Shown: positions 4,775 to 42,110, counted from the stretch's first letter. The stretch: 64,000 nt of DNA from Myxococcota bacterium (GCA_965223415.1 OZ245002.1:5408001-5472000), one strand, 5' to 3'. Translations and numbers: made by a program. Notes: generated by a model not told the origin, from the sequence alone.

Positions 4775-4871
4775 TGGCGGGGCGGACGGGACTCGAACCT
4801 ACAACCTCCGGCTGTAACTCCGCGGAAACCCGGGGGTTCGTGAGGCGGAGGCTTGTATCCCGTTGTATCCC
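4775..4871 (-). repeat. tRNA-Asp att-like module (97 bp)
   Basis: 4775-4799 identical to tRNA-Asp 3' 25 nt; TTGTATCCC at 4853 and 4863; CGTATCCC x2 also on the left (4713-4731). Confidence 0.92.
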
Positions 4872-4930
4872 ACCAGGGCGAGGGCGCTCCGGCTGGCTGG
4901 TGACCTCGCGCCTTGTGTAGCCTCTCACAC

Positions 4931-5131
4931 ATGGCGACCAACCTCGATCTCGACCCCAACCTCGTCGAGCGCGCCCTGGCCCTGAGCGGGGCCCCTACCA
5001 AGAAGGCGGCTGTGACGGCAGCCCTCCAGGAGTTCATCGCGCGGCGTGAGCAGCGCGGGCTCCTCGAGCTCTTTGGCAAGCTCGAGTGGGATCCTGGCTA
5101 CGACTACAAGCGTGAGCGCTCCCGGGATTGA
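4931..5131 (+). CDS. vapB: VapB-type antitoxin
   Basis: MATNLDLDPNLVERA..TKKAAVTAALQEF; overlaps the PIN gene. Confidence 0.85.
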   Translation: MATNLDLDPNLVERALALSGAPTKKAAVTAALQEFIARREQRGLLELFGKLEWDPGYDYKRERSRD

Positions 5132-5532
5132 GCCTGTTCGTCGACACGAGCGTCTGGTCGCTCGCACTGCGCCGCGACCGTCCACCCGACGTGCCAGAGG
5201 TCGGCGCGCTCGAGCGGGCGCTCGCGGAGGGCGAGTTGATCACTACCACCGGCCTCGTCTACCAGGAGCTCCTCCAGGGGTTCCATGGCCCGCGCGACCA
5301 GGAGGCGATCGTGGCGCACTTCGGCGCCCTGCCCTTCCTGACGCCCGATCGCCACGATCACTTCGAGGCCGCGCAGTTGCGCAACCGGGCCCGCCGTCGG
5401 GGAGTCCAGGTCGGCACGATCGACGCGATCCTCGCCCAGCTCTGCATCCGCTACGAGCTACGGCTGCTCACCACCGACGCGGACTTCGCGCGAATCGCCG
5501 AGCAAGAGCCGCTGGAGCGCTGGATGCCGTAG
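5128..5532 (+). CDS. vapC: VapC PIN-domain toxin
   Basis: FVDTSVW, ELLQG, TIDAILA, LLTTDADF. Confidence 0.9.
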   Translation: MSLFVDTSVWSLALRRDRPPDVPEVGALERALAEGELITTTGLVYQELLQGFHGPRDQEAIVAHFGALPFLTPDRHDHFEAAQLRNRARRRGVQVGTIDAILAQLCIRYELRLLTTDADFARIAEQEPLERWMP

Positions 5533-5612
5533 CAGGCCAGCCGGGGATTCGAACCCCCTGCGCCAGCGACATGAGGGGACGTCGCACAGGCCACATCGGC
5601 CCGGCCCCCGCA

Positions 5613-6233
5613 TCAGGCTTCGGCGCGGCTCCCGGACCAGGAGAGCACCGTCTCGAGGAGAGCGACGGCAAGCGCCCGCTCCTGCTCGACGCCGCCGAGG
5701 AGTTCCGACCCCATCTCCCCGAGGTTCACGCGGACCGCATGGAAGACGACGACGTGGAGCAGCGCTTGCCGCAGCGGGGCCTCTGCGGGCATGCGCGAAC
5801 CCCTCGCACTGCGCACCGCGGCCTCGATCCGCTCCACGAGGGGCAGCATCGTGTCGCGAACCGCGGCCATCCCGTGCCTTCCGGGGCCGAGGACCTCGGC
5901 GTTGAGCACGCCGAGGAGATCGCGGTGCTCCACCTCGAAGGCGGAGATCGCATCCAGGACGTCGGCCAGCAGCTTGCGGGGTGACTCGTCGGACGCGAGC
6001 ACTCGCACGAGCGGCTCTTCGATGCGGCGATAGGCACGACGCATCACCTCGTCGAAGAGGACTTCCTTCGATCCGAAGTGGTAGAGGAGCGACGGGGCTC
6101 GCATGCCGGCCGCTTCGGCCAGCTGCTGCAGGGAGGTCGGGTGGAAGCCGCCCTTGGCGAAGGCGTGCTCCGCTGCCGAGAGGATCCGCTCTCGCGTCGC
6201 GGCTCGATCTAGCGAGCCTCTGGGCCGTCCCAC
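5613..6233 (-). CDS. TetR/AcrR regulator
   Basis: TRERILSAA..SLQQLAEAAGMRAPSLLYHFGSKE; GTG start inferred. Confidence 0.88.
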   Translation of the reverse strand: MGRPRGSLDRAATRERILSAAEHAFAKGGFHPTSLQQLAEAAGMRAPSLLYHFGSKEVLFDEVMRRAYRRIEEPLVRVLASDESPRKLLADVLDAISAFEVEHRDLLGVLNAEVLGPGRHGMAAVRDTMLPLVERIEAAVRSARGSRMPAEAPLRQALLHVVVFHAVRVNLGEMGSELLGGVEQERALAVALLETVLSWSGSRAEA

Positions 6234-6257
6234 GAGACCTCCGGCGTGTTGCAGAAA

Positions 6258-6274
6258 ATCTAATGGTATTAGAT
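6258..6274. promoter_or_regulatory. Probable TetR operator
   Basis: ATCTAAT-GGT-ATTAGAT palindrome in the divergent intergenic region. Confidence 0.6.
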
Positions 6275-6314
6275 AGTCCTGCTGCTGCCCACCCGGCGCT
6301 CCAGGGAGGACTCC

Positions 6315-6866
6315 ATGACCGAGCAGCCCGAGAACACGACCCGCGAGGCCCAGGCCCCTGTCCAAGCCGAGGACCTCCGCGAGCTCTCCCCGGAAGAGCT
6401 CATGGACCTCTTCCACAAGGGCCGTGCCCCAACCTCCCTGGCCGCGATCGAGGGCGACCCACGAGGCGTCGGCATCGGGCTGCACTTCTGGTCGCGCGGC
6501 TGGATCGATCGCTGGCTCCGAAAGCGGACGACGACCGAGCGCTTCCTGTGGCACGGGAAGAGCTTCCGGATGAAGACCGAGACCGAGGGCTGGGGCTTCA
6601 ACCGCACCGGCCGCGGCCCGATCCTCACCGTCTTCCCCTTCAAGACCAGCCTCGGGACCTCCGTGATCGACGGCGAGCCCTGCGTGGTCATCGACTACGA
6701 CGTGCCGCGGAATCCGTGGTGGGAGCGGCTCACCTGGGACGAGCTGCGCGAGGTGTCACCGGGGGTGTTCCTGGGCGTGACGACGCTCCGCCTCTTCGGA
6801 CGTCACCGGGTCTCCCTCTGGTTCGCCGTGGACACGACGGCGCCCCAGGATTGGGCGGGTGCCTGA
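6315..6866 (+). CDS. Hypothetical protein
   Basis: GGAGG RBS, plausible composition, divergent from TetR. Confidence 0.7.
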   Translation: MTEQPENTTREAQAPVQAEDLRELSPEELMDLFHKGRAPTSLAAIEGDPRGVGIGLHFWSRGWIDRWLRKRTTTERFLWHGKSFRMKTETEGWGFNRTGRGPILTVFPFKTSLGTSVIDGEPCVVIDYDVPRNPWWERLTWDELREVSPGVFLGVTTLRLFGRHRVSLWFAVDTTAPQDWAGA

Positions 6867-6991
6867 TCGGCCCTTCTGCGAATCCGCTCGGCCCGTCTCC
6901 CGGCTGTCGGAATGATGTTAGGCGCCGACTCGTCGCGGAACGCGAGGCTCTGGCGTGCCAACGGCCACGCCCATCCGCGCGACTCCTTCGC

Positions 6992-7897
6992 GTGAGTGTG
7001 TTCACGGACAAGGTCGCGATCATTACCGGCGGCGCTTCCGGCATCGGCCGGGCACTCGGGGAGGCGCTGGCCCGGGCGGGGGCGCGGGTGGTGCTCGCCG
7101 ACCGCGACGCGGAGCGGCTCTTCCGAGCAGGCGAAGGCCTCGGCTCCGCCGGTGCGAGGGCCCGGACGGCCATCCTCGATGTCCGGGACTCCCGCGCGGT
7201 ACACGAGCTCGTCGAGAAGACGGCGCAGGAGCACGGCCGGCTGGACTACCTCTTCAACAACGCCGGGATCGGCGTCTTCGGCGAGGCCCGCGACGTCTCA
7301 CTCGAGGACTGGCGCAACGTCGTCGACGTCGATCTCTACGGCGTCGTGCACGGTGTCACCGCCGCGTACCCGCTCATGGTGGAGCAGGGCTCCGGCCACA
7401 TCGTCAACACGGCTTCGCTCGCCGGATTGATTCCCGGGGTCGGCGGGGCCTCCTATTCTGCAGCCAAGTACGGCGTGGTCGGCCTCTCACACGCCCTGCG
7501 CTTGGAGGCGGAGGCTCTGGGCGTCAAGGTGAGCGTGGCGTGCCCCGGCTTCGTCGAGACGGCCTTCCAGACCAGCAAGGTGGTGGGGCTGAACCGCGAG
7601 GCGTTCCTCGCCGGAGCACCGAAGCTCATGCCCGCGGACCGGTGTGCGCGGGACATCCTGCGCGGAGTCGAGCGCAACCAGGAGACCATCGTCGTCAGCA
7701 CCCTCGCCAAGGTCGCCTGGCGCTCGTACCGGTACGCGCCCGGCCTGGTGAGGTGGACCATGCGAAGAACCCTCAGAGAGATGCGCGAACTGCGCACCGA
7801 GCCATCCAGACGTCAGGGGTCCGAGATCAGGCGCTCGCCGCACGACCAAGGGCAGCCAAAGCGCCGAACCAAGCACCGCCAGAACGAGAATAGATGA
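6992..7897 (+). CDS. Short-chain dehydrogenase/reductase; C-terminus reads into the repeat spacer
   Basis: TGGASGIG, NNAG, YSAAK. Confidence 0.88.
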   Translation: MSVFTDKVAIITGGASGIGRALGEALARAGARVVLADRDAERLFRAGEGLGSAGARARTAILDVRDSRAVHELVEKTAQEHGRLDYLFNNAGIGVFGEARDVSLEDWRNVVDVDLYGVVHGVTAAYPLMVEQGSGHIVNTASLAGLIPGVGGASYSAAKYGVVGLSHALRLEAEALGVKVSVACPGFVETAFQTSKVVGLNREAFLAGAPKLMPADRCARDILRGVERNQETIVVSTLAKVAWRSYRYAPGLVRWTMRRTLREMRELRTEPSRRQGSEIRRSPHDQGQPKRRTKHRQNENR

Positions 7898-7914
7898 ACG
7901 ATTCCGGGTACTTA
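7803..7914. repeat. Truncated copy of the conserved Arg-Asp spacer
   Basis: Aligns with 48589-48701 (GAACCAAGCACCGCCAGAACG shared). Confidence 0.8.
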
Positions 7915-8011
7915 TGGCGGGGCGGACGGGACTCGAACCTACAACCTTCGGCTGTAACTCCTCGGAAACGAAGGGGTTCTTGAGGCTGAAGCCTGTATCC
8001 CGTTGTATCCC
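7915..8011 (-). repeat. tRNA-Asp att-like module (97 bp)
   Basis: 25-nt tRNA 3' identity plus TGTATCCC x2. Confidence 0.92.
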
Positions 8012-8036
8012 GAACCCCGACGGGCCCTGCTTCTGA

Positions 8037-8050
8037 TAGCCAATTGGCTA
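8037..8050. promoter_or_regulatory. Probable operator of the HTH/NTase pair
   Basis: Perfect palindrome TAGCCAATTGGCTA. Confidence 0.6.
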
Positions 8051-8061
8051 CCATTCGGACC

Positions 8062-8388
8062 ATGTCGGTCGCAAGCATCGTCCGGGAGGCCCGCCGCCGC
8101 GCGGGCCTGACCCAGGCCTCATTGGCCCAGAAGGCGGGCGTTCCGAAGTCCACCGTAGGCCGGATCGAGTCCGGGGCTCGAACGCCTTCGGTCGAGCTCG
8201 TGGAGCGGCTCGTCCGAGCGGCCGGGCTCGAGGTCACCATCGCCTTGTCCGAGCCCGATCCCGGAACCGACTCCTTGTTCGAGCGCACGCTACGCCGCAC
8301 ACCTGCAGAGCGACTCGCCGATGCGACTCGAGCGGCGCGCTTCGTCCTGCGCGGCAGGCGCGAGATCGCGGCCGCGGCCGATGGCTAG
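8062..8388 (+). CDS. XRE-family HTH protein (putative antitoxin)
   Basis: GLTQASLAQKAGVPKSTVGRIESG. Confidence 0.85.
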   Translation: MSVASIVREARRRAGLTQASLAQKAGVPKSTVGRIESGARTPSVELVERLVRAAGLEVTIALSEPDPGTDSLFERTLRRTPAERLADATRAARFVLRGRREIAAAADG

Positions 8389-8896
8389 TCGCGACTTCGA
8401 CCCGGAGAAGATGCTCTCCGTGCTGGCGGAGGCAGGCGTGGAGTTCGTCCTCATCGGCGGTATGGCGGCAATCCTGCACGGCGACGTCGGGGTCACCGTC
8501 GACCTGGATGTCGTTCCTGACCGCGAAGCGGCGAATCTCGAGCGTCTCGCGCGAGCTCTACAAGAGCTTGGAGCACGCATCCGCACCGAGGGTGAGCCGG
8601 AGGGATTGGCGTTCGATTGCTCGGCCCAGTTCTTCGCCAACCTGTCTCCTGACTCGATCGTGAACATGACCACGCAGGCAGGCGACCTGGACGTCACGTT
8701 CTGCCCGAGCGGAACGCAGGGCTTCCGGGACCTCCGGCGAGACGCCGTTGAAATCGAAGCGGCCGAGCGCCTACACATCCTGGTGGCATCGCTCGCAGAC
8801 ATCATTCGCTCGAAGGAAGCTGCCGGTCGAGAGAAAGACCGCCTCGCCCTGCCCCGCCTTCGTCGACTACTGGATCGCCTCGGCGAGAGCGAGTAG
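8381..8896 (+). CDS. Nucleotidyltransferase-fold protein (TA-like partner)
   Basis: LIGGMAA..HG..TVDLDV; SKEAAGREKD. Confidence 0.8.
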   Translation: MASRDFDPEKMLSVLAEAGVEFVLIGGMAAILHGDVGVTVDLDVVPDREAANLERLARALQELGARIRTEGEPEGLAFDCSAQFFANLSPDSIVNMTTQAGDLDVTFCPSGTQGFRDLRRDAVEIEAAERLHILVASLADIIRSKEAAGREKDRLALPRLRRLLDRLGESE

Positions 8897-8914
8897 CCGC
8901 GGCTGGGGGCCCGC

Positions 8915-9010
8915 CCCCCGACCCCCAGGTTCGAAGCCTGAAGGGACCCGTAGGAAATCCAAATAGTTACGGGATTCCGAGCGGGAATACGCGGGAATGA
9001 GCGGGAATAC
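8915..9010 (-). repeat. tRNA-Arg anticodon-arm fragment plus 3x10-bp repeat
   Basis: CCCCCGACCCCCAGGTTCGAAGCCTG (8915-8940); GCGGGAATAC/GCGGGAATGA/GCGGGAATAC (8981-9010). Confidence 0.85.
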
Positions 9011-9110
9011 GGGCACAAAATGGTCACACCGGAAATGCTCCGGCGAGTCAATTCTCATGCGGCGACCCATCTGATTTTCCTATTCGAATGGTCATGATAT
9101 ATTGAAGTTC

Positions 9111-10265
9111 ATGTTCGCACGGTACCTGCATCTGCCTCGGCCAGGGACGGAGTCCTTCTTTCTCTGGGGGCCTCGTCAGACGGGCAAGAGCACGCTGCTC
9201 CGGCAGTCCTACCCGGACGGTCGCTGGATCGACCTGCTCAAGGCCGAGGAGTTTCGACGCTATCTGGCTCGCCCCGAGTTGCTGCGGCAGGAGATCGAGG
9301 CCGAGTGGCCGACAGAGAATCGGCAAGTCGTGATCGACGAGATTCAGAAGGTGCCCGCTCTGCTCGACGAGGTTCACTGGCTCATCGAGAATCGCGGCCT
9401 GCACTTCGCGCTATGCGGTTCCAGCGCCCGCAAGGTCAAACGGGGTGCGGCCAACCTCCTGGGTGGGAGAGCTCTACGGTTCGAGCTTCACGGTCTCACC
9501 GCAGGCGAGCTCGGTCGCGAGTTCGACCTCGACCGGATGCTCAACCACGGCTACCTGCCCCGGATCTACGAGGCGAGTCGCCCGCGCCGGCTGTTGAACG
9601 CGTATGTGGCCGACTACCTCAAGGAGGAGGTCGCGGCCGAAGGCCTGGTGAGAAACCTCCCAATCTTCTCTGAGTTTCTCGATGTCGCCTCCCTCAGCGA
9701 CGGTGAGATCGTGAACTTCTCGAACATCGCGCGTGAGTGCGGAGTCTCGAGTCACACGACGAAGAGTCACTTCCAGATCTTGGAAGACACACTGCTCGGG
9801 CGTTGGCTGCCGGCCTATCGGAAGCGACCGAAGCGGAGGGTGATCCGCGCGCCGAAGTTCTACTTCGTCGATGTCGGCGTCGTGAACCGGCTGGCCAAGC
9901 GGGGGGAGCTGTCTCCCGGCTCCGAGCTCTACGGCAAGGCCTTCGAGAACTGGGTCTTCCACGAGCTGTCGGCCTTCGCGAGCTATCGGGAGTTCGACGG
10001 CGGTCTGTCCTACTGGCGGTTGGCCAGTGGTATCGAGGTCGACTTCATCCTCGGAGACATGGAGATCGCCATCGAGGCGAAGTCCAGTGCCAGGGTCACA
10101 CGCGATCACTTGAAGGGGCTGCGGAGCCTCGTGGAGGACCATCCCGACGTGGGGCGGCGGATCGTGGTTTGCCGGGAGTCACGGGCGCGCAAGACCGAGG
10201 ACGGAATCGAGATCCTTCCCGCATCATCCTTCGTTCGCCGGCTCTGGGCGGGCGACCTCGCATGA
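9111..10265 (+). CDS. AAA+ ATPase with DUF4143-type C-terminal domain
   Basis: GPRQTGKS, VIDEIQK, PKFYFVDVG, AFENWV, EVDFI..IEAK. Confidence 0.88.
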   Translation: MFARYLHLPRPGTESFFLWGPRQTGKSTLLRQSYPDGRWIDLLKAEEFRRYLARPELLRQEIEAEWPTENRQVVIDEIQKVPALLDEVHWLIENRGLHFALCGSSARKVKRGAANLLGGRALRFELHGLTAGELGREFDLDRMLNHGYLPRIYEASRPRRLLNAYVADYLKEEVAAEGLVRNLPIFSEFLDVASLSDGEIVNFSNIARECGVSSHTTKSHFQILEDTLLGRWLPAYRKRPKRRVIRAPKFYFVDVGVVNRLAKRGELSPGSELYGKAFENWVFHELSAFASYREFDGGLSYWRLASGIEVDFILGDMEIAIEAKSSARVTRDHLKGLRSLVEDHPDVGRRIVVCRESRARKTEDGIEILPASSFVRRLWAGDLA

Positions 10266-10368
10266 GTTCGGAATCTCGAGGTCCGCGTATGGGCGTTATG
10301 TCAAACCCCTACGGGGAGCCCCGCAGCGGACTTCTCGCGGAAATTCGCCCTCGCCGAGGGTGACTTCC

Positions 10369-10708
10369 TCAAGGGCTTGATGAAGAACTTCCGGACGAGC
10401 TGGCCGACATTTCGACCAGAACGTCGTAGTGGGCGTAGTTCTCCGACGTGGCGCTAACCAGGTCATGCGTCAGGATGTAGGGATCCCCCTCGATAAAGTG
10501 CTCCGTCCAGTGGCCCTCGCTGACGAGGACGCAGCCGGGTCGGATCGCATCGTCGAGTCGACATTCGATCTTCATCTGGCCCCGGTCGTTGAAGACGCTC
10601 ACGATGTCTCCATCTGCCACGTCTCTCGCCCGCGCGTCCGCGGGATGGACGCGCACGATCGGGTTCGGCTCCCGCGCATTCGGCATATCCAGATTCGCGA
10701 AGGTCGTG
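10369..10708 (-). pseudogene. C-terminal fragment of a molybdopterin oxidoreductase
   Basis: VHPADARARDVADGDIVSVFNDRG..IRPGCV; 5' part replaced by IS481 sequence. Confidence 0.8.
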
Positions 10709-11336
10709 GGACTTCGGGCTGCCGACGGCGATCCGCACCGACAACGGGGTTCCCTTCGCGTCGCCCAACGCACTCTTCGGTCTCTCGAGCTCTCGATCTG
10801 GTGGCTCAAGCTCGGCATCCAGATCCAGCGCATCAAGCCGGGCTGCCCCCAGCAGAACGGACGGCACGAACGCATGCATCTCACGCTCAAGAAAGAAGCC
10901 ACCAAGCCCGCGTCGTTCAACTTCCTGCAGCAGCAGGAGCGCTTCGACCGGTTCACAGGCGTTTACAATCACGAGCGACCGCACCAGGCCCTGGACGGGG
11001 CGTACCCCGGCGACGTCTATACACCTTCGCCGCGCGCCTACGAGCCGCCCGGGGAGCCCGAGTACCCGTTCCACGACCGATCCGTCCGGGTCACCCAGTG
11101 CGGTCGGATCTGCCTCGGACGCCGCAAGATCAATCTCAGCACCGTCTTCGCGGGCCAGACCGTGGGCCTCCGCGAGGTCGACGACCAGGTCTGGCTCGTC
11201 AGCTTCCTGGACTTCGATCTGGGCTTCTTCGACCAGGACGAGGGCCGGATCGAGCCCGCCCCGAACCCCTTCGGGCCCCAGAAAGTGTCAACCATGTCCC
11301 CGGAATGATCTGTAAACCATGTGCCCGGAATGGACC
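10709..11336 (+). mobile_element. IS481-family 3' fragment with right end
   Basis: IRTDNG, PQQNGRHERMHLTLK, YNHERPHQAL; repeated TGTMAACCATGT ends; 1-nt frameshift near 10788. Confidence 0.85.
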
Positions 11337-11346
11337 GCGGAATCTT

Positions 11347-11424
11347 TGGCACGCCGGGAGGGATTCGAACCCCCGACCCCCAGGTTCGAAGCCCGATGCT
11401 CGATGTCGAACCACCGGACAACGC
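11347..11424 (-). repeat. tRNA-Arg(TCG)-like element with intact 3' half and aberrant 5' half
   Basis: Loop CTTCGAA, T arm GGGGG-TTCGAAT-CCCTC, CCA end; 6-nt D loop, 4-nt insertion in the acceptor strand. Confidence 0.8.
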
Positions 11425-11555
11425 AGTTCGAAGAGCCGCGCGCTTCCGGGCGTCGGGGATCCGAGATCTGGCGCTCCGCGCAACAACCAAGGGCAACCAT
11501 AGCGCCGAACCAAGCACCGCCAGAACGCGAATTACTCAGCGAATCCAGCGGGTTA
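11425..11555. repeat. Conserved Arg-Asp spacer
   Basis: Homologous to 41883-42013 and 48571-48701; AACCA(A/T) x3. Confidence 0.85.
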
Positions 11556-11652
11556 TGGCGGGGCGGACGGGACTCGAACCTACAACCTCCGGCTGTAACC
11601 CCGCGGAAACGCGGGGGTTCGAAGAGGTGAAGCTTGTATCCCGTTGTATCCC
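11556..11652 (-). repeat. tRNA-Asp att-like module (97 bp)
   Basis: 25-nt tRNA 3' identity plus TTGTATCCC x2. Confidence 0.92.
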
Positions 11653-11692
11653 GCTGCGGGCAGCCGAGGGCTCCGACGCCCATGGATCGGTT

Positions 11693-11708
11693 GTAGCTTT
11701 AAAGCTAC
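11693..11708. promoter_or_regulatory. Probable TA operator
   Basis: Perfect palindrome GTAGCTTTAAAGCTAC, repeated at 26858-26873. Confidence 0.7.
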
Positions 11709-12061
11709 CCTAGCTCGGTGCCGACGGAGGTCGAGGTCAGAATCTACGCCCTACCGGACGGCAGCGAGCCCTACACGCGGTGGGAGGCGGCACTCAGGGA
11801 CAGACAGGCGCGCGCACGGATCCGGGCGCGGATCGGACGGCTTCGGCTGGGCAACTTCGGCGACGCCAAGCGCGTCGGTGAGGTGTTCGAGCTTCGGGTG
11901 CCCGCCGGGCCCGGCTACCGCATCTACTACGGGCGGGACGGCGACGCCGTGGTGGTCCTGCTCTGCGGCGGAGACAAGTGTCGCAGGACGTGATATTCGA
12001 GGGCTAAGAGGACACGTAGATTTGCGCACCTCCTGTTGAGCCGCTGCGCGGCACGTTCCCC

Positions 12062-13348
12062 GTGAGGGAGGGGGGCGTGGGGCAGCGGCGACTGAGGCAG
12101 GAGGAAGTGATGACGATCGAAGTGCTGCACGAGCGGGGGTGCTCGAACCGGGAGATCGCCCGCCAGCTGGGGATCCGGGAGAGCGCGGTGCGCTACCGGC
12201 TGAAGCGGCTGGCGGAGGGGGCGCGAGACGGCCGGAGCGGGAAGCCCTTCCTGGCCGAGGCGGTCCACGAGGTGATCGCGGAGTGGCTGGAGGCGAGCTC
12301 GGGAGGCCGTGGCGTGAACCTGCAGGAGCTTCACGAGTTCCTGGTGGAGGAGCACGGGTACACGGGGAGCTCCAAGAGCGTGCAGCGGTACGTGCGGGCC
12401 CGGTTCCCGAGACCGAAGGTGCGGAGCCGGCGTCGGGTGGAGACACCGCCCGGGGCGCAGGGTCAGGTGGACTGGGGCGAGTTTCCGGGCGTGCGGATCG
12501 GGGGCCAGGAGGTGGACCTGCATGCCTTCCACCTGGTGCTCTCGCACTCGCGGCGAGAAGCGGTGGTGTGGTCGGAGCGGGCGGACACGCTGGCGTGGCT
12601 GGACGTGCACAACCGGGCCTTCGAGCGGCTGGGCGGGGTGCCGGCGGTGCTGCGGGTCGACAACGTGAAGACAGCGGTGGCGAAGGGGGCGGGGCCATGG
12701 GGGACGGTGAACCCGGCTTACGCGAGCTATGCCGGGGCCCTTCGCTTCCACGTGGACGCCACCCGTCCCCGCCAGCCGCAGGAGAAGGGGAAGGTGGAGC
12801 GTCGGATCCTGGGGCACCGGCGGGGCTTCGATCCGCGTCGGCGGGAGCACGAGAGCCTGGAGTCGCTGCAAGCGTGGACGGACGGCCAGGTGGCGCGCTC
12901 GAGCCACCGGCGGCAGTGCCCGGCGACGGGCACGACGGTCTTCCAGGCGTGGGAGGCGGAGAAGCCCCATCTCGGGGCCCTGCCCGAGCGGCTTCCCGAG
13001 CCCTTCGACCTGGCCGTGATGCGACGTGTCGGGCGCGACGCCACGGTGCGCTTCGAGGGGCGTACCTACAGCGTCCCCTTCCGCTTCGTCGAGCAGAGCG
13101 TCGAGGTGCGCGGCTGCGCCCGGCAGGTGCAGGTCTGGGCCGAGGGCTCGGTGGTGGCCGCGCACCCGCGCCACACGCGAAGCCGCCTGCTGCTGGACCC
13201 GAGCCACTACGAGGGGCCGAGCACGGAGGGGGTGGAGGCGCCCGTACCGCTCGGGCGCATGGGTCGACGCCTCCAGGAGCTGTGGGCGATGGAGCCGGAG
13301 CAGCGGCCGATCGACCTCTATGCCGATCTGGCGGAGGTGGCGCGATGA
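12062..13348 (+). CDS. istA: IS21 transposase
   Basis: PGAQGQVDWG, RVDNVK, KGKVER; start uncertain. Confidence 0.92.
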   Translation: MREGGVGQRRLRQEEVMTIEVLHERGCSNREIARQLGIRESAVRYRLKRLAEGARDGRSGKPFLAEAVHEVIAEWLEASSGGRGVNLQELHEFLVEEHGYTGSSKSVQRYVRARFPRPKVRSRRRVETPPGAQGQVDWGEFPGVRIGGQEVDLHAFHLVLSHSRREAVVWSERADTLAWLDVHNRAFERLGGVPAVLRVDNVKTAVAKGAGPWGTVNPAYASYAGALRFHVDATRPRQPQEKGKVERRILGHRRGFDPRRREHESLESLQAWTDGQVARSSHRRQCPATGTTVFQAWEAEKPHLGALPERLPEPFDLAVMRRVGRDATVRFEGRTYSVPFRFVEQSVEVRGCARQVQVWAEGSVVAAHPRHTRSRLLLDPSHYEGPSTEGVEAPVPLGRMGRRLQELWAMEPEQRPIDLYADLAEVAR

Positions 13349-14145
13349 CGGCGGGAAACCCGGTGCCCAAGAAGGGCGGCAAGGTGGATCTCGACCCGAC
13401 CCGCGAGCGGCTCGTGCGCCTCGGCCTCCATCACGCGGCCGAGCACATCGGCGAGGAGCTGGCCCGAGCGACCAAGGACGACCTCGTGCCCCACCGCTTC
13501 CTCGACCTGCTGCTCGAGGCCGAGCTGCAGCACCGCGAGGAGCGGAGGATGAAGACCTCGCTCCGTCTCTCGGGCCTTCCCACGGGGCAGACCCTCGGCA
13601 ACTTCGACTTCGCCTTCCAGCCGAGTGTGGAGCGGAGCCGGATCGAGACGCTGGGCACCTGCGCGTGGATCCGGGCCAAGGAGAGTCTGCTGATCCAGGG
13701 TCCGCCGGGAGTGGGCAAGACCCACCTGGCGGTGGCCCTGGGGGTGCGGGCCGTGGAGAACGGCTTCTCCGTGGCCTTCCATCGCCTCGAGGACCTGCTG
13801 GCGGCCCTCAAGCGCGACGCCGAGATCAGCCCGCAACGGCTGCGGCGGCGCAAGCACATGAACGTGGCGCTCCTCGTCATCGACGAGGTCGGCTTCGAGC
13901 CCATGACGCGCCAGGAGGCGAGCCTCTTCTTCCGGCTCGTCTCCTACCGCTATGGGAGGGGCTCGATCCTGATCACCACGAACAAGGGCATCGCCGACTG
14001 GCCCGAGGTGCTGGCGGGCGACGAGGTGCTGGCCACCGCCATCCTCGATCGCCTCCTCCACCACAGCCAGGTGCTCAACATCTCGGGGCGGAGCTACCGG
14101 CTCCGCGAGCTCGAGCAGGCCGCGGGGCAAAGCGCCCAGCGTTGA
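13345..14145 (+). CDS. istB: IS21 helper ATPase
   Basis: GPPGVGKT, VIDEVG, LDRLLHH. Confidence 0.93.
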   Translation: MTAGNPVPKKGGKVDLDPTRERLVRLGLHHAAEHIGEELARATKDDLVPHRFLDLLLEAELQHREERRMKTSLRLSGLPTGQTLGNFDFAFQPSVERSRIETLGTCAWIRAKESLLIQGPPGVGKTHLAVALGVRAVENGFSVAFHRLEDLLAALKRDAEISPQRLRRRKHMNVALLVIDEVGFEPMTRQEASLFFRLVSYRYGRGSILITTNKGIADWPEVLAGDEVLATAILDRLLHHSQVLNISGRSYRLRELEQAAGQSAQR

Positions 14146-14349
14146 GGCCCCAGAGGGCGGCCTGACGGCCGTGCTCTCCTTCGGAGAGCGGAAGAGAAGA
14201 AGGAAGAACCGAACATCAACCCAGGGGGGTGCGCAAAACTAGCCGTCCTCTTAGCGCGCAAGAGATGACGTCCCTCGACAACAAGGGATCACAGGCGAGA
14301 GACATCGAGCGCGCCGAAGGGTATTGGCGCGACTACCGGAGTCGAAACG

Positions 14350-14652: not shown

Positions 14653-14702
14653 AGCAAGCCGGGAACGCCGCGACCCTTCAGCCGAAGGCCAACGGCTGGT
14701 CG

Positions 14703-27790: not shown

Positions 27791-27805
27791 AGGAGGAAGA
27801 AGGGG

Positions 27806-34058: not shown

Positions 34059-34122
34059 GCGTCCGACCCGCACTCCGGCTCCTCTTTCGAAAGCGCAGCG
34101 CAAACTGATAGGGTTCCGACCC

Positions 34123-34815
34123 GTGGCCGAGACTTCGAATCCCAAGACCGCCTCGAGAGGCCGCCCCCCGCGCGTCACCGCGGAACGTCTGCAGGACGCG
34201 ATCCTCGCCATCGAGGGAGAAGTACCGACGCTGCCGGGCCTTGCCCGACAACTCGGCATCGGCGTGGCCACGATCTACAGCCACGTTCGTGGCCAGGAGG
34301 AACTCCGGCGGCTTGCGGCGGATGTCGTCCTGGACACCTGGCCGATTCCGCCCGCTCAACCGGGCACCCACTGGGCGGATTGGCTGCTCGAGTACGCGCG
34401 CGACTCCCGCCGCATGATCGAACGTTATCCCGTCGCCCATGGAACCCGGCCGATGGCCGGCGGCCAGCTCCGCCACGCCGAACGCGTCCTCGCCCAGCTG
34501 ATCGCGCTCGGGATGAACGGCAGCGAGGCTGTGTACGCGTTCCACCAGGTCGGGCTCCTGGTACTCGGACTCGGAGCGCAGATCGAAGCAACGCGGGCCG
34601 AGGGTGCGCAGTCCGGTCTCGACGAATGGGGACTGCTCCAGGAAGCGTTCGCGAGCCATCCGGATGAGCTGCCTGTCCTGGGTGGACTCGAGCGGACCGA
34701 TCTCCCCTCTCTGAACGCCGCCTTCGACGAACTGGTCTGGTTCACGCTCGCAGGCATCGCCCGCCGCCGAGGTGAGGTCTTGCCCAACCAGCCTCCGGCT
34801 GCGACGGCGCCGTAG
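34123..34815 (+). CDS. TetR-family regulator
   Basis: GRPPR..LARQLGIGVATIYSHV; start inferred. Confidence 0.75.
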   Translation: MAETSNPKTASRGRPPRVTAERLQDAILAIEGEVPTLPGLARQLGIGVATIYSHVRGQEELRRLAADVVLDTWPIPPAQPGTHWADWLLEYARDSRRMIERYPVAHGTRPMAGGQLRHAERVLAQLIALGMNGSEAVYAFHQVGLLVLGLGAQIEATRAEGAQSGLDEWGLLQEAFASHPDELPVLGGLERTDLPSLNAAFDELVWFTLAGIARRRGEVLPNQPPAATAP

Positions 34816-34849
34816 GCTCGGACCTCCGGAAGATCCACGGCACTCCCCT

Positions 34850-35704
34850 TCAGGGCGTCTCGAGCGACGATCCCTGGATCGAGGAGCAGTGAAGCGCCAT
34901 CTCACTGTACTTGTCAGCGAGAGCCTCCATCCCCGGTGCGATCTCGACATCGTGGGGCGTGTAGCTGGGCATGTAGATGCGGAGCAGCCCCGGAAACACA
35001 TCGCGGACCCTGCCGGATCGGGGAACGAGGGATGCCTCCCTCAACTCCGCCTTCTCCCGTGCGCTGCGCTTCGGCGGCGGACGCACGGACATCATGTACT
35101 TCACCACGCGGCGCACCCATCTGGAGAAGTGGAGTTGGGCCCAGGTGCCGACGGCCAGGCGATAGAGGTAGCCGCCGCAAACGTGATCGTAGACGTCGAA
35201 TGCGACGGTGCGATGCTCCAGCTCTTCGACGAAGTGCCACTCCCACATCTGCAGGAAGGTGGGAAGGTCTTCGCCGAAACCGTTCGGTTCCATCAGGTGC
35301 TTGACCACGTGCATCGTGAAGGCTTCGAAGCCTTCCGCGTACGCGAGGTTGAAGCGCAGCGACTTGGTCTTGGAGAATCGGTGGTAGTCGTCCGAGAGCT
35401 CCTTCTCCAGCGTCTCGAGTCCGGGAAAGCCCGAGCGGCGGATGGTCTCATTGAACTTCATGTGCATCCGGTAGTGCTGGCCCTCCTGGGCGGCGAACCC
35501 CTTCAGGCCCTCGAGAACCTTCGGATCGGTGACATGGCTCTGTGCGGCCTTCATCGACCGAATCAAGTAGGGCTCCAGGTGCGGGAGCAGGAGCGAGGCG
35601 GCGATGAAGGTGAACGACTGTTCGTGATCGCCCTCGATGAAGACCGGGTCGATCTCATCAGGAAACTCGAACGGCATCCGTCGGACGGTGATGGTGTCCA
35701 GCAT
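34850..35704 (-). CDS. Predicted metal-dependent hydrolase
   Basis: QEGQH, EAFT, WHFVEELEHRTVAFDV. Confidence 0.85.
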   Translation of the reverse strand: MLDTITVRRMPFEFPDEIDPVFIEGDHEQSFTFIAASLLLPHLEPYLIRSMKAAQSHVTDPKVLEGLKGFAAQEGQHYRMHMKFNETIRRSGFPGLETLEKELSDDYHRFSKTKSLRFNLAYAEGFEAFTMHVVKHLMEPNGFGEDLPTFLQMWEWHFVEELEHRTVAFDVYDHVCGGYLYRLAVGTWAQLHFSRWVRRVVKYMMSVRPPPKRSAREKAELREASLVPRSGRVRDVFPGLLRIYMPSYTPHDVEIAPGMEALADKYSEMALHCSSIQGSSLETP

Positions 35705-35754
35705 GGTTTCTCCTCGGGGCAAAATGCAACTCGGCCGCACTGGGATGTTCGACA

Positions 35755-36573
35755 TCATCCGTCGTCTTCATTCCAGAACAGACGCGCCGCGTTCTGGTAG
35801 AGAAAACGATCGAGGACCCCGGGGCGAAGGTCGAGCTTTCGCGCCTCTTCGACACATCTGGGCATCTGAATGGCCGGATGGTCGGACGCGAAGATGGTCT
35901 TCTTCTGGCCACGCGTATTCATGAAATGAATCAGCTCGGGCGGGAAGTGCTTGGGAAGGTAGGCCGACGTCATCAGGTGCAACCCGGGATACTTGAGCAT
36001 CAGGCGAAACGCGACCTGCCACCACGGATCGGCGCCGTGGGCCATCACGAGCTTCAATTCTGGAAAGTGGAGGCAGACCCGATCGAGGAACATCGGGTTC
36101 TGGCATTCGCCCGGCACCTGTGGCCCGGGAATTCCGGTGTTGATCGTGATGGGCAGGTCGAGCTCGATGCACTTCGCATACACCGGGTAGTAGATGGCGT
36201 CGTTCGGTGGGATGTCGAACAAGAAGGGGGTGATGCGCGCCAGCACCACCGGGTGGTCCCGTCGGAAGGACTCGAGTGCGCGGAGTGTCTTCATCCCGCG
36301 GCGTGGGTTCAGCTGGGCGCCGAGCGAGAACCGTTCCGGGTGCTTCTCGGGAAACTTCATGACGTGCTCGGACGGCTTCGCGGGATCCGTCGTCAGGATG
36401 GCCCGCGCGACGCCGCAGCCATCCATCATGTCGAGCATCTCCTGGACTTCGTAGTTGCGGAAGAAGTCCTCGCCCTGCTTGAAGTAGTCCTTCCCTACCT
36501 GTTCCAGGTAAGCGGGCCGGCCGAACTCGGCCACGTTCACGTTCACCCAGCAGTCGATTGCGCGCGGCGCCAA
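35755..36573 (-). CDS. Amidohydrolase_2 family
   Basis: YYPVYAKC.EL, MAHG, IFASDHP. Confidence 0.85.
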   Translation of the reverse strand: MAPRAIDCWVNVNVAEFGRPAYLEQVGKDYFKQGEDFFRNYEVQEMLDMMDGCGVARAILTTDPAKPSEHVMKFPEKHPERFSLGAQLNPRRGMKTLRALESFRRDHPVVLARITPFLFDIPPNDAIYYPVYAKCIELDLPITINTGIPGPQVPGECQNPMFLDRVCLHFPELKLVMAHGADPWWQVAFRLMLKYPGLHLMTSAYLPKHFPPELIHFMNTRGQKKTIFASDHPAIQMPRCVEEARKLDLRPGVLDRFLYQNAARLFWNEDDG

Positions 36574-36719
36574 GGTCTCTTCCTCCGGAAGGGTGGGCGG
36601 CCGCGAGGCAGCCTATCATATTTGAGATCTTTTTCTGTAAATCATTCTCTAAATGATCTACAGTAGGTCCCACGGCCGAGCTTCGGCTCACCGCAACCGC
36701 CGATGGGAGCCTGCAGCGC

Positions 36720-37907
36720 ATGAAGTTCGGAATCTTCTACGAGCACCAGCTGCCCCGGCCGTGGACGGACGATGCCGAGCATCGGCTGATGAAGGACTCG
36801 CTCGCCCAGTGCGAGCTCGCGGACAAGCTCGGGTACGACTACGCGTGGGAAGTCGAGCACCACTTTCTCGAGGAGTACTCCCACTCCTCGGCGCCCGAGG
36901 TCTTCCTCGCCGCCGCGAGCCAGCGCACCGAGCGGATCCGGCTGGCGCACGGAATCATCCAGCTGACGACGAACCACCCGGCGCGAGTGGCCGAGCGAGT
37001 CTCCACACTCGACCTCGTCAGCGACGGGCGCGTGGAGCTCGGGATCGGTGAGGGTTCGACGTCGACCGAGCTGCACCCGTTCGATCGGCGATTCCGCGAC
37101 AAGCGGCCGGTCTGGGAGGACGCCGTTCGGGCGCTCATCCCGATGTTCACGGAGCCGGTCGCCGAGTATCACGGAACCCACTTCGACTTCCCGCCGCGCA
37201 ACGTCTTGCCGAAGCCGTTGCAGAAGCCGCATCCGCCCTTGTGGGTGGCGTGTTCCCAGCTCGAGACGATCCAGATGGCGGGGATGCGCGGCATGGGCGC
37301 GTTGGGCTTCCAGTTCGCCTCGGCCGACACCGCGACGAAGTGGGTCCATGCCTACTACGACGCCTACCTGAATCAGCTGGACAAGCTCGCGGACTACCAG
37401 ACGAACCCGAACATCGCCGTCGTCTCCGGCTTCATGTGCGCCGAGACCGACGAAGAGGCCCTGCGAAAGGCCGATGGTTGGACCTTCTTCCAGTTCGCGC
37501 TCCGGTACTACGGGAGCAAGGGCGTGCTTCCCCCCGGAGAAGTCTCGCTCTGGGAGGAGTACGAGAAGTGGCGGGCGACGCCGGAGGGCCAGAAGCAGAG
37601 CCGCACCGGGCTGATCGGCTCGCCCGACACACTGCGGCGTCGTCTCCGCAAGTTCGAGCAGTCGAACGTGGACCAGGTCATCCTGCTCAATCAGGCTGGC
37701 AAGAATACGCACGAGGACATCTGTTCGAGCCTCGAGTTGTTCGCGCGCGAAGTGATGCCGGAGTTCCACGGTCGCGACCCGGAACACCAGGAATGGAAGC
37801 GCGCGGTCCTCAACCGGGAGCTCGTACTCGACCGTCCGGACACGACGCAGCCCGAGGACACCACCGCTCTCTTCAAGCCGACGCAGCCACCGTCCTCGGG
37901 GGCGTGA
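36720..37907 (+). CDS. LLM-class flavin-dependent oxidoreductase
   Basis: EHHFLEEYSHSSAPE, GRVELG.G, PKPLQKPHPPLW. Confidence 0.9.
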   Translation: MKFGIFYEHQLPRPWTDDAEHRLMKDSLAQCELADKLGYDYAWEVEHHFLEEYSHSSAPEVFLAAASQRTERIRLAHGIIQLTTNHPARVAERVSTLDLVSDGRVELGIGEGSTSTELHPFDRRFRDKRPVWEDAVRALIPMFTEPVAEYHGTHFDFPPRNVLPKPLQKPHPPLWVACSQLETIQMAGMRGMGALGFQFASADTATKWVHAYYDAYLNQLDKLADYQTNPNIAVVSGFMCAETDEEALRKADGWTFFQFALRYYGSKGVLPPGEVSLWEEYEKWRATPEGQKQSRTGLIGSPDTLRRRLRKFEQSNVDQVILLNQAGKNTHEDICSSLELFAREVMPEFHGRDPEHQEWKRAVLNRELVLDRPDTTQPEDTTALFKPTQPPSSGA

Positions 37908-37980
37908 GGTTCATCGGGCCGGCGGATGTCGGCCCTTCACGGGCTTCGGCCCTGCACTCGACTCCATCTGGAGGCACACG

Positions 37981-39738
<1,758 letters not shown>

Positions 39739-39879
39739 TGGACGCGAGGGCCGACCCGGGGCTCACGATCTGAAGGCGAGGTCGCCCTCCGCTCGGTGGC
39801 CGACACGGCGGAGCTGGGGCCGGGAACACTGGAGATCTCCCGTGGTTGCGCCACCGTCGGAACGGCGAGGAGGACCCAC

Positions 39880-41646
39880 ATGGCTTGGCTCGACGAACTC
39901 ACTGCGATCGGACGTCTAGTAGGGAGCGCTCGACGTGCGCTGCCCAAATCGAACTGGACCATGACGCGGCTGCTCGAGGAGCGCGCACACCGGGCGCCCG
40001 GCGATCTTGCCCTCGCGTACCTCGATCGTCGGTATACCTGGGGCGAGATCGACCAGCACGCGAATCGCTGGGCCCACGTGTTCCTGGACGAGGGCATCGA
40101 GCCCGGCGACATCGTGGCGCTGATCATGGACAACCGACCGGAGTACCTCTTCGCGGTCCATGGCCTCGCGAAGGTCGGTGCGGCGGCGGCGCTGATCAAC
40201 ACGAATCTCACGGGTCAGTCCCTCGTCCACGCGATCACCGTGGGGAACTCGCGCAAGGTCGTCGCCGGCGACGAGCACGCGGCCGCCGTCGAAGAGGTGA
40301 TCGCGGAGCTCGAGACCCTCGACGACGAGCACCCGGTCCTGCTCCACGTGGAGGACGCGACGCAGCCGCGACCCGGTGGGGGCGTGCCGCTCAACGAGGC
40401 GCTGCAGTCGGCCCAGGCGTCGAAGCCGCAGGTCGCAGTCGAGGCCGACTCCGAGATCCTCTTCTGCTTCATCTACACGTCCGGGACGACGGGGCTGCCG
40501 AAGGCTGCGGTCGTCTCGCACCGGCGCGCGATGATCGGGGGGCTCGGCGCTGCGCACCTCATGATGCGGCTCGAGCCGGGTGACGTGAGCTACGTGGCCC
40601 TGCCGCTCTATCACTCGAGCGCGATGTTCATCGGCTGGAGCGCCGTGCTGAACTCCGGCGCTGCGATGGCGTTGCGGCGCAAGTTCTCGGTCACGCATTT
40701 CTGGGACGACGTGCGTCGCTTCGGCGCCACGCACTCCGTCTACATCGGCGAGCTGTGTCGCTACCTCCTGAACGGGGAGCCCGGTCCGGGCGATCGCGAC
40801 CACGACCTGCGTTGCGTAATGGGCAACGGACTGCGACCGGACATCTGGAACGAGTTCCAGGAGCGCTTCGGGATCCCGGAGATCCGCGAGTTCTATGGCG
40901 CCACCGAAGGCACGGCGGGGCTCATGAATCGCACGGGCAAGCCGGGCATGGTGGGCAAGATCGGCTTCGGCATGAAGCTGGTCACCTGCAACCAGGAGAC
41001 CGGCGAGCCGATTCGCGGCGCCGACGGTTTCTGTACCCCGGTCGACCCGGGGCAGATCGGCCTGCTGCTGGGACCGATCTCGAAGGCGACCTCGTTCGAC
41101 GGCTACGTCGACCGGGAGGCCTCGCAGAAGAAGATCCTGACGGACGTGTTCAAGAGCGGCGATCGCTTCTTCAACACGGGGGACCTGTTGCAACTCCACG
41201 AGGGCAAGTGGCTCTCGTTCGCGGATCGGGTGGGGGACACCTTCCGCTGGAAGGGCGAGAACGTCTCGACCAACGAGGTCGCGGAGGTCTGCAACGGAGC
41301 GCCGGGTGTGCTCGAGACCAACGTCTACGGCGTTCAGGTTCCGGGCGCAGACGGCCGGGCCGGCATGGCGGCGATCGACACGGACGAGGGCTTCGACCTC
41401 GAGGCGTTCGCCGGGTTCGTGAAGTCGGCGCTTCCCGGCTACCAGCGTCCGCTCTTCGTGCGCCTGCTGGGCGGCGAGATGCAGACCACCGGCACCTTCA
41501 AGCACCAGAAGGTGCGATACCGCAACGAGGCGTTCGATCCCGGCCAGTGCGAGGACCCGCTCTACTACTTCGATGGCGAGTCGTATCGGCCCATCGACGC
41601 CGCGGTCTTCGACGCCATCGGCAAAGGCGAGATCCGGGTGGGCTAG
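39880..41646 (+). CDS. Long-chain acyl-CoA synthetase (FATP/FadD6-like)
   Basis: IYTSGTTGLPK, YIGELCRYL, DRVGDTFRWKGENVST. Confidence 0.92.
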   Translation: MAWLDELTAIGRLVGSARRALPKSNWTMTRLLEERAHRAPGDLALAYLDRRYTWGEIDQHANRWAHVFLDEGIEPGDIVALIMDNRPEYLFAVHGLAKVGAAAALINTNLTGQSLVHAITVGNSRKVVAGDEHAAAVEEVIAELETLDDEHPVLLHVEDATQPRPGGGVPLNEALQSAQASKPQVAVEADSEILFCFIYTSGTTGLPKAAVVSHRRAMIGGLGAAHLMMRLEPGDVSYVALPLYHSSAMFIGWSAVLNSGAAMALRRKFSVTHFWDDVRRFGATHSVYIGELCRYLLNGEPGPGDRDHDLRCVMGNGLRPDIWNEFQERFGIPEIREFYGATEGTAGLMNRTGKPGMVGKIGFGMKLVTCNQETGEPIRGADGFCTPVDPGQIGLLLGPISKATSFDGYVDREASQKKILTDVFKSGDRFFNTGDLLQLHEGKWLSFADRVGDTFRWKGENVSTNEVAEVCNGAPGVLETNVYGVQVPGADGRAGMAAIDTDEGFDLEAFAGFVKSALPGYQRPLFVRLLGGEMQTTGTFKHQKVRYRNEAFDPGQCEDPLYYFDGESYRPIDAAVFDAIGKGEIRVG

Positions 41647-41804
41647 GCGCTCCGAGCTTCCTCGGCTGGGTGCTTAACTGCGCAGTGCCGTCACTGCTGG
41701 CTGGCCTGGAACGGCAACGCATCGAGTCGCTTCGCATCTAATGCTGAGCCCCAGGTGCGTTGCCTGAGGCTCGATGCTGCCGTGCGGTAAGTGCGCGAGT
41801 TCGC

Positions 41805-41882
41805 TGGCACGCCGGGAGGGATTCGAACCCCCGACCCCCAGGTTCGAAGCCTGGTGCTCGATGTCGAACCACCGGACAACGC
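41805..41882 (-). repeat. tRNA-Arg(TCG)-like element with intact 3' half and aberrant 5' half
   Basis: CCAGG-CTTCGAA-CCTGG arm, T arm, CCA; near copy of 11347-11424. Confidence 0.8.
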
Positions 41883-42013
41883 AGTTCGAAGAGCCGCGCG
41901 CATCCAGCGTTCAGCGGCCCGGAACCAGGCGCTCGCCGCGACAACCAAGCACGACCAAAACGCGAAATCAGACACCGCCAGAACGCGAATTCCTCAGCGA
42001 ATCCGGCGACTTG
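41883..42013. repeat. Conserved Arg-Asp spacer
   Basis: Same length as and homologous to 11425-11555. Confidence 0.85.
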
Positions 42014-42110
42014 TGGCGGGGCGGACGGGACTCGAACCTACAACCTCCGGCCGTAACTCCGCGGAAACGCAGGGGTCCGGATCGGTGAAGCTTGTATCCC
42101 GTTGTATCCC
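42014..42110 (-). repeat. tRNA-Asp att-like module (97 bp)
   Basis: 25-nt tRNA 3' identity plus TTGTATCCC x2. Confidence 0.92.

Follow-up and report, generated by a model that had tools for sequence, protein, structure and literature searches.

A stretch of 64,000 nucleotides from a Myxococcota bacterium (GCA_965223415.1, OZ245002.1:5408001-5472000; referred to as the window, with positions counted from its first letter) contains five copies of a 97-bp module, each of which begins with the 3′ end of a tRNA-Asp gene. These modules very probably represent the core and the P′ arm of the attachment site of integrative elements that are specific for tRNA-Asp, here called T1 elements, and the DNA islets lying in tandem between them would be members of a pile that have lost their integrases. 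Positions outside the window are given as genome coordinates.

The five modules lie on the plus strand at 4775..4871 (c1), 7915..8011 (c2), 11556..11652 (c3), 26721..26817 (c4), and 42014..42110 (c5), as an earlier note on this DNA had reported, and each of them measures 97 bp from the first base of the core to the last base of the second repeat. Every copy starts with the same 25-mer, TGGCGGGGCGGACGGGACTCGAACC, which is the reverse complement of the tRNA-Asp 3′ end from the CCA end through the T loop plus 2 nt. It is followed by a variable spacer of 54 bp and by two copies of TGTATCCC, the P′ arm pair, so that TGTATCCCGTTGTATCCC closes all five modules (in c1, the core occupies 4775-4799 and the repeats 4854-4861 and 4864-4871). 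It was also stated in the earlier note that identity to the tRNA ends 2 nt past the T loop, where all copies read TACAACCT and the gene reads CGCAACTT, and that the middle of the module has many substitutions. Both observations hold: the former in five of five copies, and the latter with 23 of the 54 spacer positions differing among them (pairwise identity 0.70-0.87, no indels). The window contains 13 occurrences of TGTATCCC, where 0.42 would be expected, and none of 100 shuffles attained that count.

The target of these elements would be the intact tRNA-Asp(GTC) gene at 48702..48778 on the minus strand (ARAGORN and Rfam tRNA, 70.8 bits), which is the single tRNA-Asp gene among the 59 tRNA genes of the 5.83-Mb single-contig genome. 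Its 3′ 25 nt (48702-48726) are the common core, and it forms the anchor of the array. In the window, six 25-bp fragments of tRNA-Asp are found at coordinates below that of the gene; all have its orientation, and one has 2 mismatches.

Related genomes bear on the identification of the modules as parts of attachment sites. The query matches 28 of 33 genomes of the same family, mostly via the tRNA end, and full T1 modules are found in four of them (G002, G003, G009, and G010). A tyrosine integrase is located directly left of the intact tRNA-Asp gene and reads toward it on four contigs (G010:C534, G009:C47, G002:C25, and G001:C8, the last with an N-terminal part that looks frameshifted), and a tandem repeat pair lies between the integrase 3′ end and the core in each case, namely TGTATCCC in G010:C534, GTGCTCAAG in G009:C47, and TTGTCACCC in G002:C25 and G001:C8. 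The order in G010:C534 is a 459-aa integrase of family PF00589, GTGTATCCCACTTGTATCCC, 42 bp, and the intact tRNA-Asp gene; a metagenome contig (L182) has the same arrangement with an integrase that is 94% identical. The presence of the TGTATCCC pair behind an intact integrase gene on these two contigs bears out the att architecture that the earlier note had deduced from the window.

The arm motif co-varies with the integrase subtype. The T1, T2, and T4 integrases are 36-40% identical to one another and are accompanied by the P-arm motifs TGTATCCC, GTGCTCAAG, and TTGTCACCC, respectively, and further motifs are found with T3, T5, T6, T7, and a viral contig; at least seven arm motifs besides that of T1 share the same core and layout. 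The earlier attribution of the modules to one integrase is supported in that their repeat pair behaves like an arm-type site of one subtype. Other subtypes have other motifs, and the integrase of this subtype is absent from the genome. Cores have one and the same motif on their P and P′ sides in T1, T2, T3, T4, and T7 (with an imperfect P-side pair in T7), and, as TTGGCGACAAG, at a paralogue. The P pair ends 40-44 bp before the core in 10 junctions; this distance is 97 bp in c4 and in G010:C90, and 52 bp in phage Mx8. For T1, T2, T3, and the paralogue, the P′ pair begins at +78 to +80 from the start of the core; T4 and T7 have it at +90. The repeats recur every 11 bp, except in one T1 form, where the period is 10 bp. 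Across subtypes, the spacings fall into discrete classes (42, 52, and 97 bp on one side; 78 and 90 bp on the other), which hints at helical phasing. The viral contig (L188) carries an attP that is not interrupted, has the same motif in both arms, and lacks a tRNA gene: an integrase 3′ end is followed by two copies of TTGGTCCG, 43 bp, a 31-bp block of tRNA-Asp identity, TTGGTCTC at +90, and TTGGTCCG at +101.

The T1 TGTATCCC pair has a fixed place approximately 58 bp beyond the T loop, and in two related sequences it recurs approximately 42 bp on the other side of the core, directly behind the T1 integrase gene. The distances of the two arm pairs from the T loop (core positions 17-23) are approximately 62 and 58 bp, and tRNA identity ends at this loop after 23-28 bp, depending on the subtype. 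This near-symmetry and the end of the identity block favor a strand exchange in or beside the T loop, and the T-loop crossover suggested in the earlier note fits both features, although it is deduced from sequence comparison.

Within the window, T1 repeats on the left side of the core are present at two of the five junctions, c1 and c4, and are lacking at c2, c3, and c5, which have the P′ pair only; arm-type repeats flank the core on both sides at c1, c4, and the viral attP. The P-arm pair of c1 (4713..4731, plus strand; two copies of CGTATCCC with a period of 11) ends 43 bp before the core and forms, together with module c1, a complete attP-like junction from which the expected upstream integrase is absent. 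In the place where this integrase would be expected, an IS21-like insertion sequence (IS) is found at 2151..4676 on the minus strand (istA 2978-4603, istB 2230-3255), which abuts the P-arm site with its boundary at 4676. The P-arm pair of c4 (26604..26622, plus strand; two copies of TTGTATCCCG, period 11) lies 97 bp before its core, an arrangement also found in G010:C90. Here the left flank, termed class B (26660-26720; the G010:C90 counterpart is L039), has approximately 55 additional bp separating the arm pair from the core; it also holds a perfect 8-bp inverted repeat, CGGGTTTC..GAAACCCG. The segment 11556-26745, bracketed by module c3 and the P-arm pair of c4, is a T1 remnant that has both arms and no integrase.

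A module of a second type is located at 1373..1472 on the plus strand. Its core (1373-1397) has 2 mismatches and is followed, with an offset of 79, by two copies of GTGCTCAAG(G), read as GTGCTCAAGG at 1452-1461 and 1463-1472. Another such module is found at genome 5394719, and the same motif occurs in the P arm of the integrase that adjoins tRNA-Asp in G009:C47, from which the module at 1373-1472 is predicted to be the P′ arm of another integrase subtype, T2. With the junction at genome 5394719, the tandem array reaches approximately 13 kb beyond the left end of the window and extends over approximately 62 kb to tRNA-Asp, with seven junctions in the window and the eighth just upstream.

The T1 integrase itself was modeled from 27 sequences (pLDDT 83). 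Residues 107-418 of the model match the integrase of Tn1549 (Z 19.3, root-mean-square deviation 3.0, 272 residues aligned) and that of lambda (Z 17-18), which cover the core-binding and catalytic domains. The protein is predicted to have an additional N-terminal domain of approximately 70 residues, a beta-sheet plus a helix, for which residues 33-104, modeled alone (pLDDT 84), give two long strands, short strands, and a helix. We infer that the TGTATCCC pairs are putative arm-type sites bound by this domain. An N-terminal fragment of a P4-type integrase (PF13356, Arm-DNA-bind_3) at genome 4908186-4908791 (L003:8186-8791) was considered as the cognate integrase and rejected: it is cut by a 2.3-kb IS, and the DNA beyond the IS is unrelated. 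It is the sole PF13356 match in this genome, none is present in the four other module-bearing genomes, and an hhalign comparison of the integrase family with this fragment gave a probability of 1%.

It might be argued that a protein other than the integrase binds the repeats, for example an excisionase or a regulator of Xre type that controls the adjoining cassette genes, or that the module is a structured RNA. Xre or toxin-antitoxin genes do follow several modules, and the c3 copy can form a perfect 7-bp hairpin with a GAAA loop. However, two independent contigs have the motif on the P side next to the 3′ end of the integrase gene, and other integrase subtypes come with other motifs. The hairpin lacks conservation, with the number of copies that pair ranging from 3 to 16 of 16 between positions, and Rfam yields tRNAs only. 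This explanation is regarded as extremely improbable. The spacer hairpin (positions 44-61) and an anticodon-stem remnant were also examined as structures in their own right and discarded, as neither is conserved and no covariation was seen; Rfam at the gathering threshold returned three tRNA-like matches in the whole window.

Constraint on the module was evaluated with 16 T1 copies from five genomes, to which 14 more were added from a pattern scan of public genomes. The scan gave at least 119 loci, mostly chance matches. Among the matches listed, to which the offsets and totals given below also refer, 20 had both core and motif, comprising three ordinary tRNA genes, three duplicates of counted copies, and 14 new copies, so that at least 30 T1 copies are present in this genome, its relatives, and public contigs. 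In the set of 16, 33 of the 54 spacer positions vary, with at least 48 substitutions and no indels, whereas one of the 16 arm positions varies (Fisher p = 1e-4). The T1 arms are clearly constrained. The alignment of further copies proposed in the earlier note left the offset of the first arm constant in 28 of 30 copies, with a shift of one base later in two due to a 1-bp insertion, while the total length proved to be either 97 or 98 bp: the second arm follows at +10 in 15 of 30 (97 bp) and at +11 in 13 of 30 (98 bp), and it is lost or cut off in two. T1 length is therefore nearly fixed and not exact, and selection and inheritance are inseparable on these data. The conservation of the arms, as a part of the joint explanation offered here, very likely reflects selection while the elements were mobile elsewhere and not in the present genome; because no cognate integrase is found in this genome, any selection would have acted in the earlier history of the elements.

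Another conceivable reason for a preserved spacer length is a coding role: in the excised form, the spacer would specify the C-terminal tail of the integrase, and integration would swap this tail. A precedent is found in Mx8, whose attP lies inside int (PMC6070905). In the T1 integrase and six of 26 aligned relatives, including the four closest to T1 (50-93% identity), the open reading frame (ORF) continues across the P arm and terminates inside the tRNA-Asp core (...LWRGG...). In 16 of 16 T1 modules, the frame from the core TGG remains open as far as codon 23 or 25, where a stop immediately precedes the arms. Nevertheless, this frame has no codon-position bias (mean entropy 0.37, 0.47, and 0.47 at codon positions 1, 2, and 3), the ORFs of T4-type integrases end ahead of the arms, that of T2 is in a different frame when it reaches the core, and open frames are common at approximately 70% GC. 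A tail-coding role of the spacer is thus considered very unlikely. Separately, gene callers ran seven ORFs (T1 and the six relatives) through the arms into tRNA-Asp antisense, and database proteins of this family therefore carry tRNA-derived C-termini.

Mx8 resembles the T1 sites in further respects. Its attB at tRNA-Asp was reportedly described by Magrini et al. in 1999. The Mx8 attP contains two copies of TGTGACAGCGG with an 11-bp period, located 52 bp before a tRNA-Asp-like core toward which int reads, so that a tandem pair on the P side of an Asp core is common to both systems, as is an ORF crossing the site in the T1 clade. On the other hand, Mx8 is a phage without a tandem pair at +78 to +90, and T1 is represented here by islets without integrases. 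BLASTP detected no similarity between Mx8 Int and the T1 integrase (E = 0.78).

Five cargo islets are located between the junctions (4872..48701), and a Pfam scan of 45 ORFs found none with an integrase. Their contents are diverse: a PIN toxin and a short-chain dehydrogenase (SDR); Xre and a DUF4143 ATPase; an IS-rich segment with HigA-like, TetR, glutathione S-transferase (GST), and fatty acid (FA) hydroxylase genes; a 15-kb block with P450, amidohydrolase, acyl-CoA dehydrogenase, luciferase-like, and AMP-binding genes; and a group of AraC, aldehyde dehydrogenase (ALDH), enoyl-CoA hydratase (ECH), CoA-transferase, and FAA hydrolase genes. The GC content is 62-72% in the 48 kb to the left of tRNA-Asp versus 70-76% to its right. 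In the c3-c4 segment, two essentially identical copies of a 2.3-kb IS (11979-14280 and 23082-25388), each encoding the same 428-aa transposase and 99.96-100% identical to a third copy at genome 4908727, lie in inverted orientation and could invert the 9 kb between them.

Several junctions carry, in place of the T1 P arm, a flank termed class A, which is found at c2, c3, c5, three junctions of a second array, and the tRNA-Asp gene (seven in total). The class A unit of c3 (11347..11555, plus strand) consists of a 3′ fragment of tRNA-Arg(TCG) at 11347-11404, a degenerate 5′ part, and a spacer of approximately 135 bp; a pseudo-tRNA call lies inside it at 11351-11420 on the minus strand. That of c5 (41805..42013, plus strand) likewise has the fragment at 41805-41862, a degenerate 5′ part, and a spacer, the latter with AACCAAG-type repeats that end approximately 42 bp before the Asp core. 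These repeats were tested as a further arm type and set aside: they occur on the P side only, at -71 or -61 in nine of nine matches, which does not correspond to an ordinary arm motif. The left flank of c2 is a partial class A spacer, whereas c3 and c5 have the full unit. Beside tRNA-Asp, the class A copy (48520..48701, plus strand) has a tRNA-Arg part that is old and degenerate throughout, which suggests that it is probably the ancestral chromosomal flank.

Because of these flanks, it has to be considered that the units were moved in another manner, either by a tRNA-Arg(TCG)-specific integrase acting at the Arg fragments of class A or by homologous recombination in the 230-330-bp repeat formed by class A, core, and module, with the T1 modules as passengers. 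Over its 3′ 58 nt, the tRNA-Arg sequence of c3 and c5 shares 98% identity with the real gene (genome 1217012-1217088); the homology begins exactly at the CCA end, and the 5′ part is degenerate. The real gene has its own adjoining, related integrase and a 40-kb island that ends in another fragment, and tRNA-Arg fragments are further present in both arrays. Even so, c1 and c4 have no tRNA-Arg fragment, c2 has the partial spacer only, the P′ arm of the 40-kb Arg island is unlike class A, and the conservation of the T1 arms is left unaccounted for; as an explanation of the whole array this one is unlikely. The recurrence of the class A flank may have come about in either of two ways, with cassettes entering through homologous recombination in the 230-330-bp repeat or with a tRNA-Arg-specific integrase moving Arg-core units. 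As a separate observation, tRNA-Arg(TCG) 3′ fragments at 11347-11420, 41805-41878, 8915-8940, and 14703-14733 are nearly identical to the real gene and are interleaved with the Asp junctions, and two tRNA-Arg fragments are called as weak tRNAs by ARAGORN and Rfam (30 and 37 bits).

With regard to the explanation preferred here, that of T1 attachment-site relics in a tandem pile, a number of results weigh against it. The integrase is missing: PF00589 was matched by 0 of 45 ORFs in the window and by none of 34 ORFs in its flanks, the genome translated in all six frames gave 10 PF00589 matches with none in either array, and neither a T1 integrase nor a recognizable remnant was found in the genome. 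A tblastn search with three tRNA-Asp integrases likewise found no match in the arrays, the best matches being paralogues at other sites with 35-42% identity. Among the matches listed, no integrase occurs within 1.5 kb of the 14 new T1 loci, and a complete T1 element with both arms and the integrase on one contig was not found; three short contigs, none a whole element, were retrieved by a metagenome scan with the T1 integrase, and no match was obtained by tblastn against a phage collection. Where a T1 P arm would be expected, the junctions c2, c3, and c5 and the tRNA-Asp gene show the class A flank, and the sevenfold recurrence of this flank is not explained by simple accretion, which predicts one flank per array. 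An element between two cores in G004:C46 has a T2-like P′ arm and a different P arm. In addition, exact 97-bp geometry under selection, which the earlier note had inferred, is not supported: in the class A flank, used as a control, four indel events accompany at least 127 substitutions (12 copies), a rate at which 1.5 spacer indels are expected and none would be seen with P(0) = 0.22 (Fisher p = 0.58), so that the zero count is what the flank rate predicts, and the 97- and 98-bp totals and two 1-bp insertions add to this. The arm-binding role of the N-terminal domain is not backed by homology either. Weak fold matches (lambda Int 14-62, Z 3.1; HPI Int arm domain, Z 3.0; AP2, Z 3.8) fall below that to the unrelated MurC (Z 5.4), a wide VIA search gave only matches of mixed kinds at Z <= 5.4, Foldseek found nothing at E <= 0.001, and no arm-binding family was detected in the T1 integrase by Pfam or hhalign.

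The modules could also be functional half-sites of a cassette system. The islets may then be integrase-less cassettes, each headed by a core and a T1 P′ arm, which the T1 integrase of a rarer helper captures and moves in trans, in a manner somewhat integron-like but heterobivalent. At least 30 T1 modules face two T1 integrase loci, the cassettes are small (1-15 kb) with varied cargo, several of them begin with toxin-antitoxin or Xre genes, the arms are intact while the spacers diverge, and the same junction type occurs across genera. Against this, lambda-type integration requires P-arm repeats, and most junctions do not have those of T1; the helper was not found in this genome, and the decay of ordinary elements yields the same picture. 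Contigs assembled from public runs gave no circular or empty-site joints and no clean core-to-core joint, which is a weak objection since these contigs break at the repeats, with joints that have sides of 20-35 nt and often foreign letters, and the run data are therefore uninformative on excision either way. On balance, the cassette system is rather unlikely. A more elaborate form of it is an unlikely proposal. Here the core with its P′-arm half-site would be a portable tag, and cassettes so tagged would pass between myxobacteria and be piled up at tRNA-Asp by a rare integrase in trans, with a regenerated class A flank as the landing pad; the subtypes, with one core in common, would have evolved mutually orthogonal arms so that co-resident arrays do not cross-react.

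T1 modules are also present elsewhere in the genome. Four of them, at 4913191, 4919044, 4920094, and 4923709 (the last lacking the second repeat), make up the second array at genome 4913191-4923796 (L003 and L004), which has no tRNA-Asp nearby and carries genes for RimK-type ligases, Fic/Doc, Xre, and PIN proteins. It shares IS110, IS21-like, and 2.3-kb IS elements with the window, and these common copies suggest that it may have been relocated by an IS-mediated rearrangement. A paralogous integrase gene at genome 1873375-1874595 has its TTGGCGACAAG pair 41 bp before its core, and the second copy of this core, with a TTGGCGACAAG pair 78 bp after it, lies in the same orientation at 3017141-3017240, 1.14 Mb away; a large rearrangement has apparently moved the two att halves apart. 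Another paralogue in the genome adjoins ssrA. Copies of the ssrA 3′ end are found at genome 4179111, 4186023, 4191646, and 658585, one beside an integrase of the same family and two more within 13 kb, and they probably form another tandem island array, at the tmRNA gene.

Several known systems are comparable with the array and its sites. The attP of phage lambda has the arm-type sites P1, P2, and P′1-3. The T1 layout is similar in that short direct repeats unlike the core are placed tens of bp on both sides of the predicted crossover and approximately one helical turn apart; it differs in having two tandem pairs, of other motifs, near-symmetric at approximately 60 bp from a tRNA T loop. Tandem accretion and integrase-less members are documented in three sources (PMC5704250, PMC3146451, and PMC4383910). 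Cis-mobilizable elements (CIMEs), and the tandem accretion at tRNA genes of integrative and conjugative or mobilizable elements (ICEs/IMEs) (Pavlovic 2004 and Bellanger 2011, reviewed in PMC5704250), are described there as keeping att sites while integration and transfer genes are lost, and as being stacked at tRNA 3′ ends with chimeric junctions. The c3-c4 segment corresponds to a CIME in keeping attL and attR without integrase or transfer genes, and the other islets have a core and a P′ arm only. In contrast to the CIME systems, neither conjugation genes nor a helper or functional neighboring element are seen here, and the P′ half is all that most junctions keep.

In Dehalococcoides, numerous islands have been described in tandem downstream of the small-RNA gene ssrA, whose 3′ end is repeated at their boundaries, with insertion at the T loop, 15 islands without an integration module, and catabolic cargo; they differ from the present array in the use of a serine recombinase and a 20-bp repeat, and no arm pairs are described for them (PMC3146451). 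The Islander approach requires an integrase for each island, assigns 1836 of 3919 islands to an attP class at the T-stem region, and lists four arrays with three or more members (PMC4383910). An intact tRNA gene with displaced 3′ fragments in direct orientation on its 3′ side, the pattern on which that approach relies, is present in the window and fits the T-stem-region class; one integrase per island is not, and the T1 array would therefore be filtered out. As for integrons, the array has no integrase of its own, its module hairpin is not conserved, and its cassettes are multi-gene units of up to 15 kb, so that it does not qualify as one.

Taken as relics of T1 attachment sites, the modules allow the following history. 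The 25-bp core is the stretch of the tRNA that each element has to bring along in order to restore the gene, and the 54-bp spacer is a decayed copy of the T-stem and anticodon-arm region of the tRNA. Islands probably accreted one after another at the single tRNA-Asp gene, and the islets would then have lost their integrases through deletion and IS insertion, leaving CIME-like remnants with metabolic and toxin-antitoxin cargo. The sites are orphans in this genome and could act only if a T1 integrase arrived in trans.

The array by itself is ordinary, being made of att-site relics in tandem islands at a tRNA gene. Sequence comparison alone, however, outlines a compact attP layout of approximately 165 bp, consisting of an arm pair, approximately 42 bp, the tRNA-Asp core, approximately 54 bp, and a second arm pair, which belongs to a little-studied family of integrases of myxobacteria and their viruses. 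The recurrent tRNA-Arg/spacer flank and the excess of modules over integrases raise the question of cargo capture without an integrase. With at least eight natural arm motifs on one core, the family offers a panel for the study of DNA reading by arm-binding domains and for orthogonal integration vectors beside Mx8.

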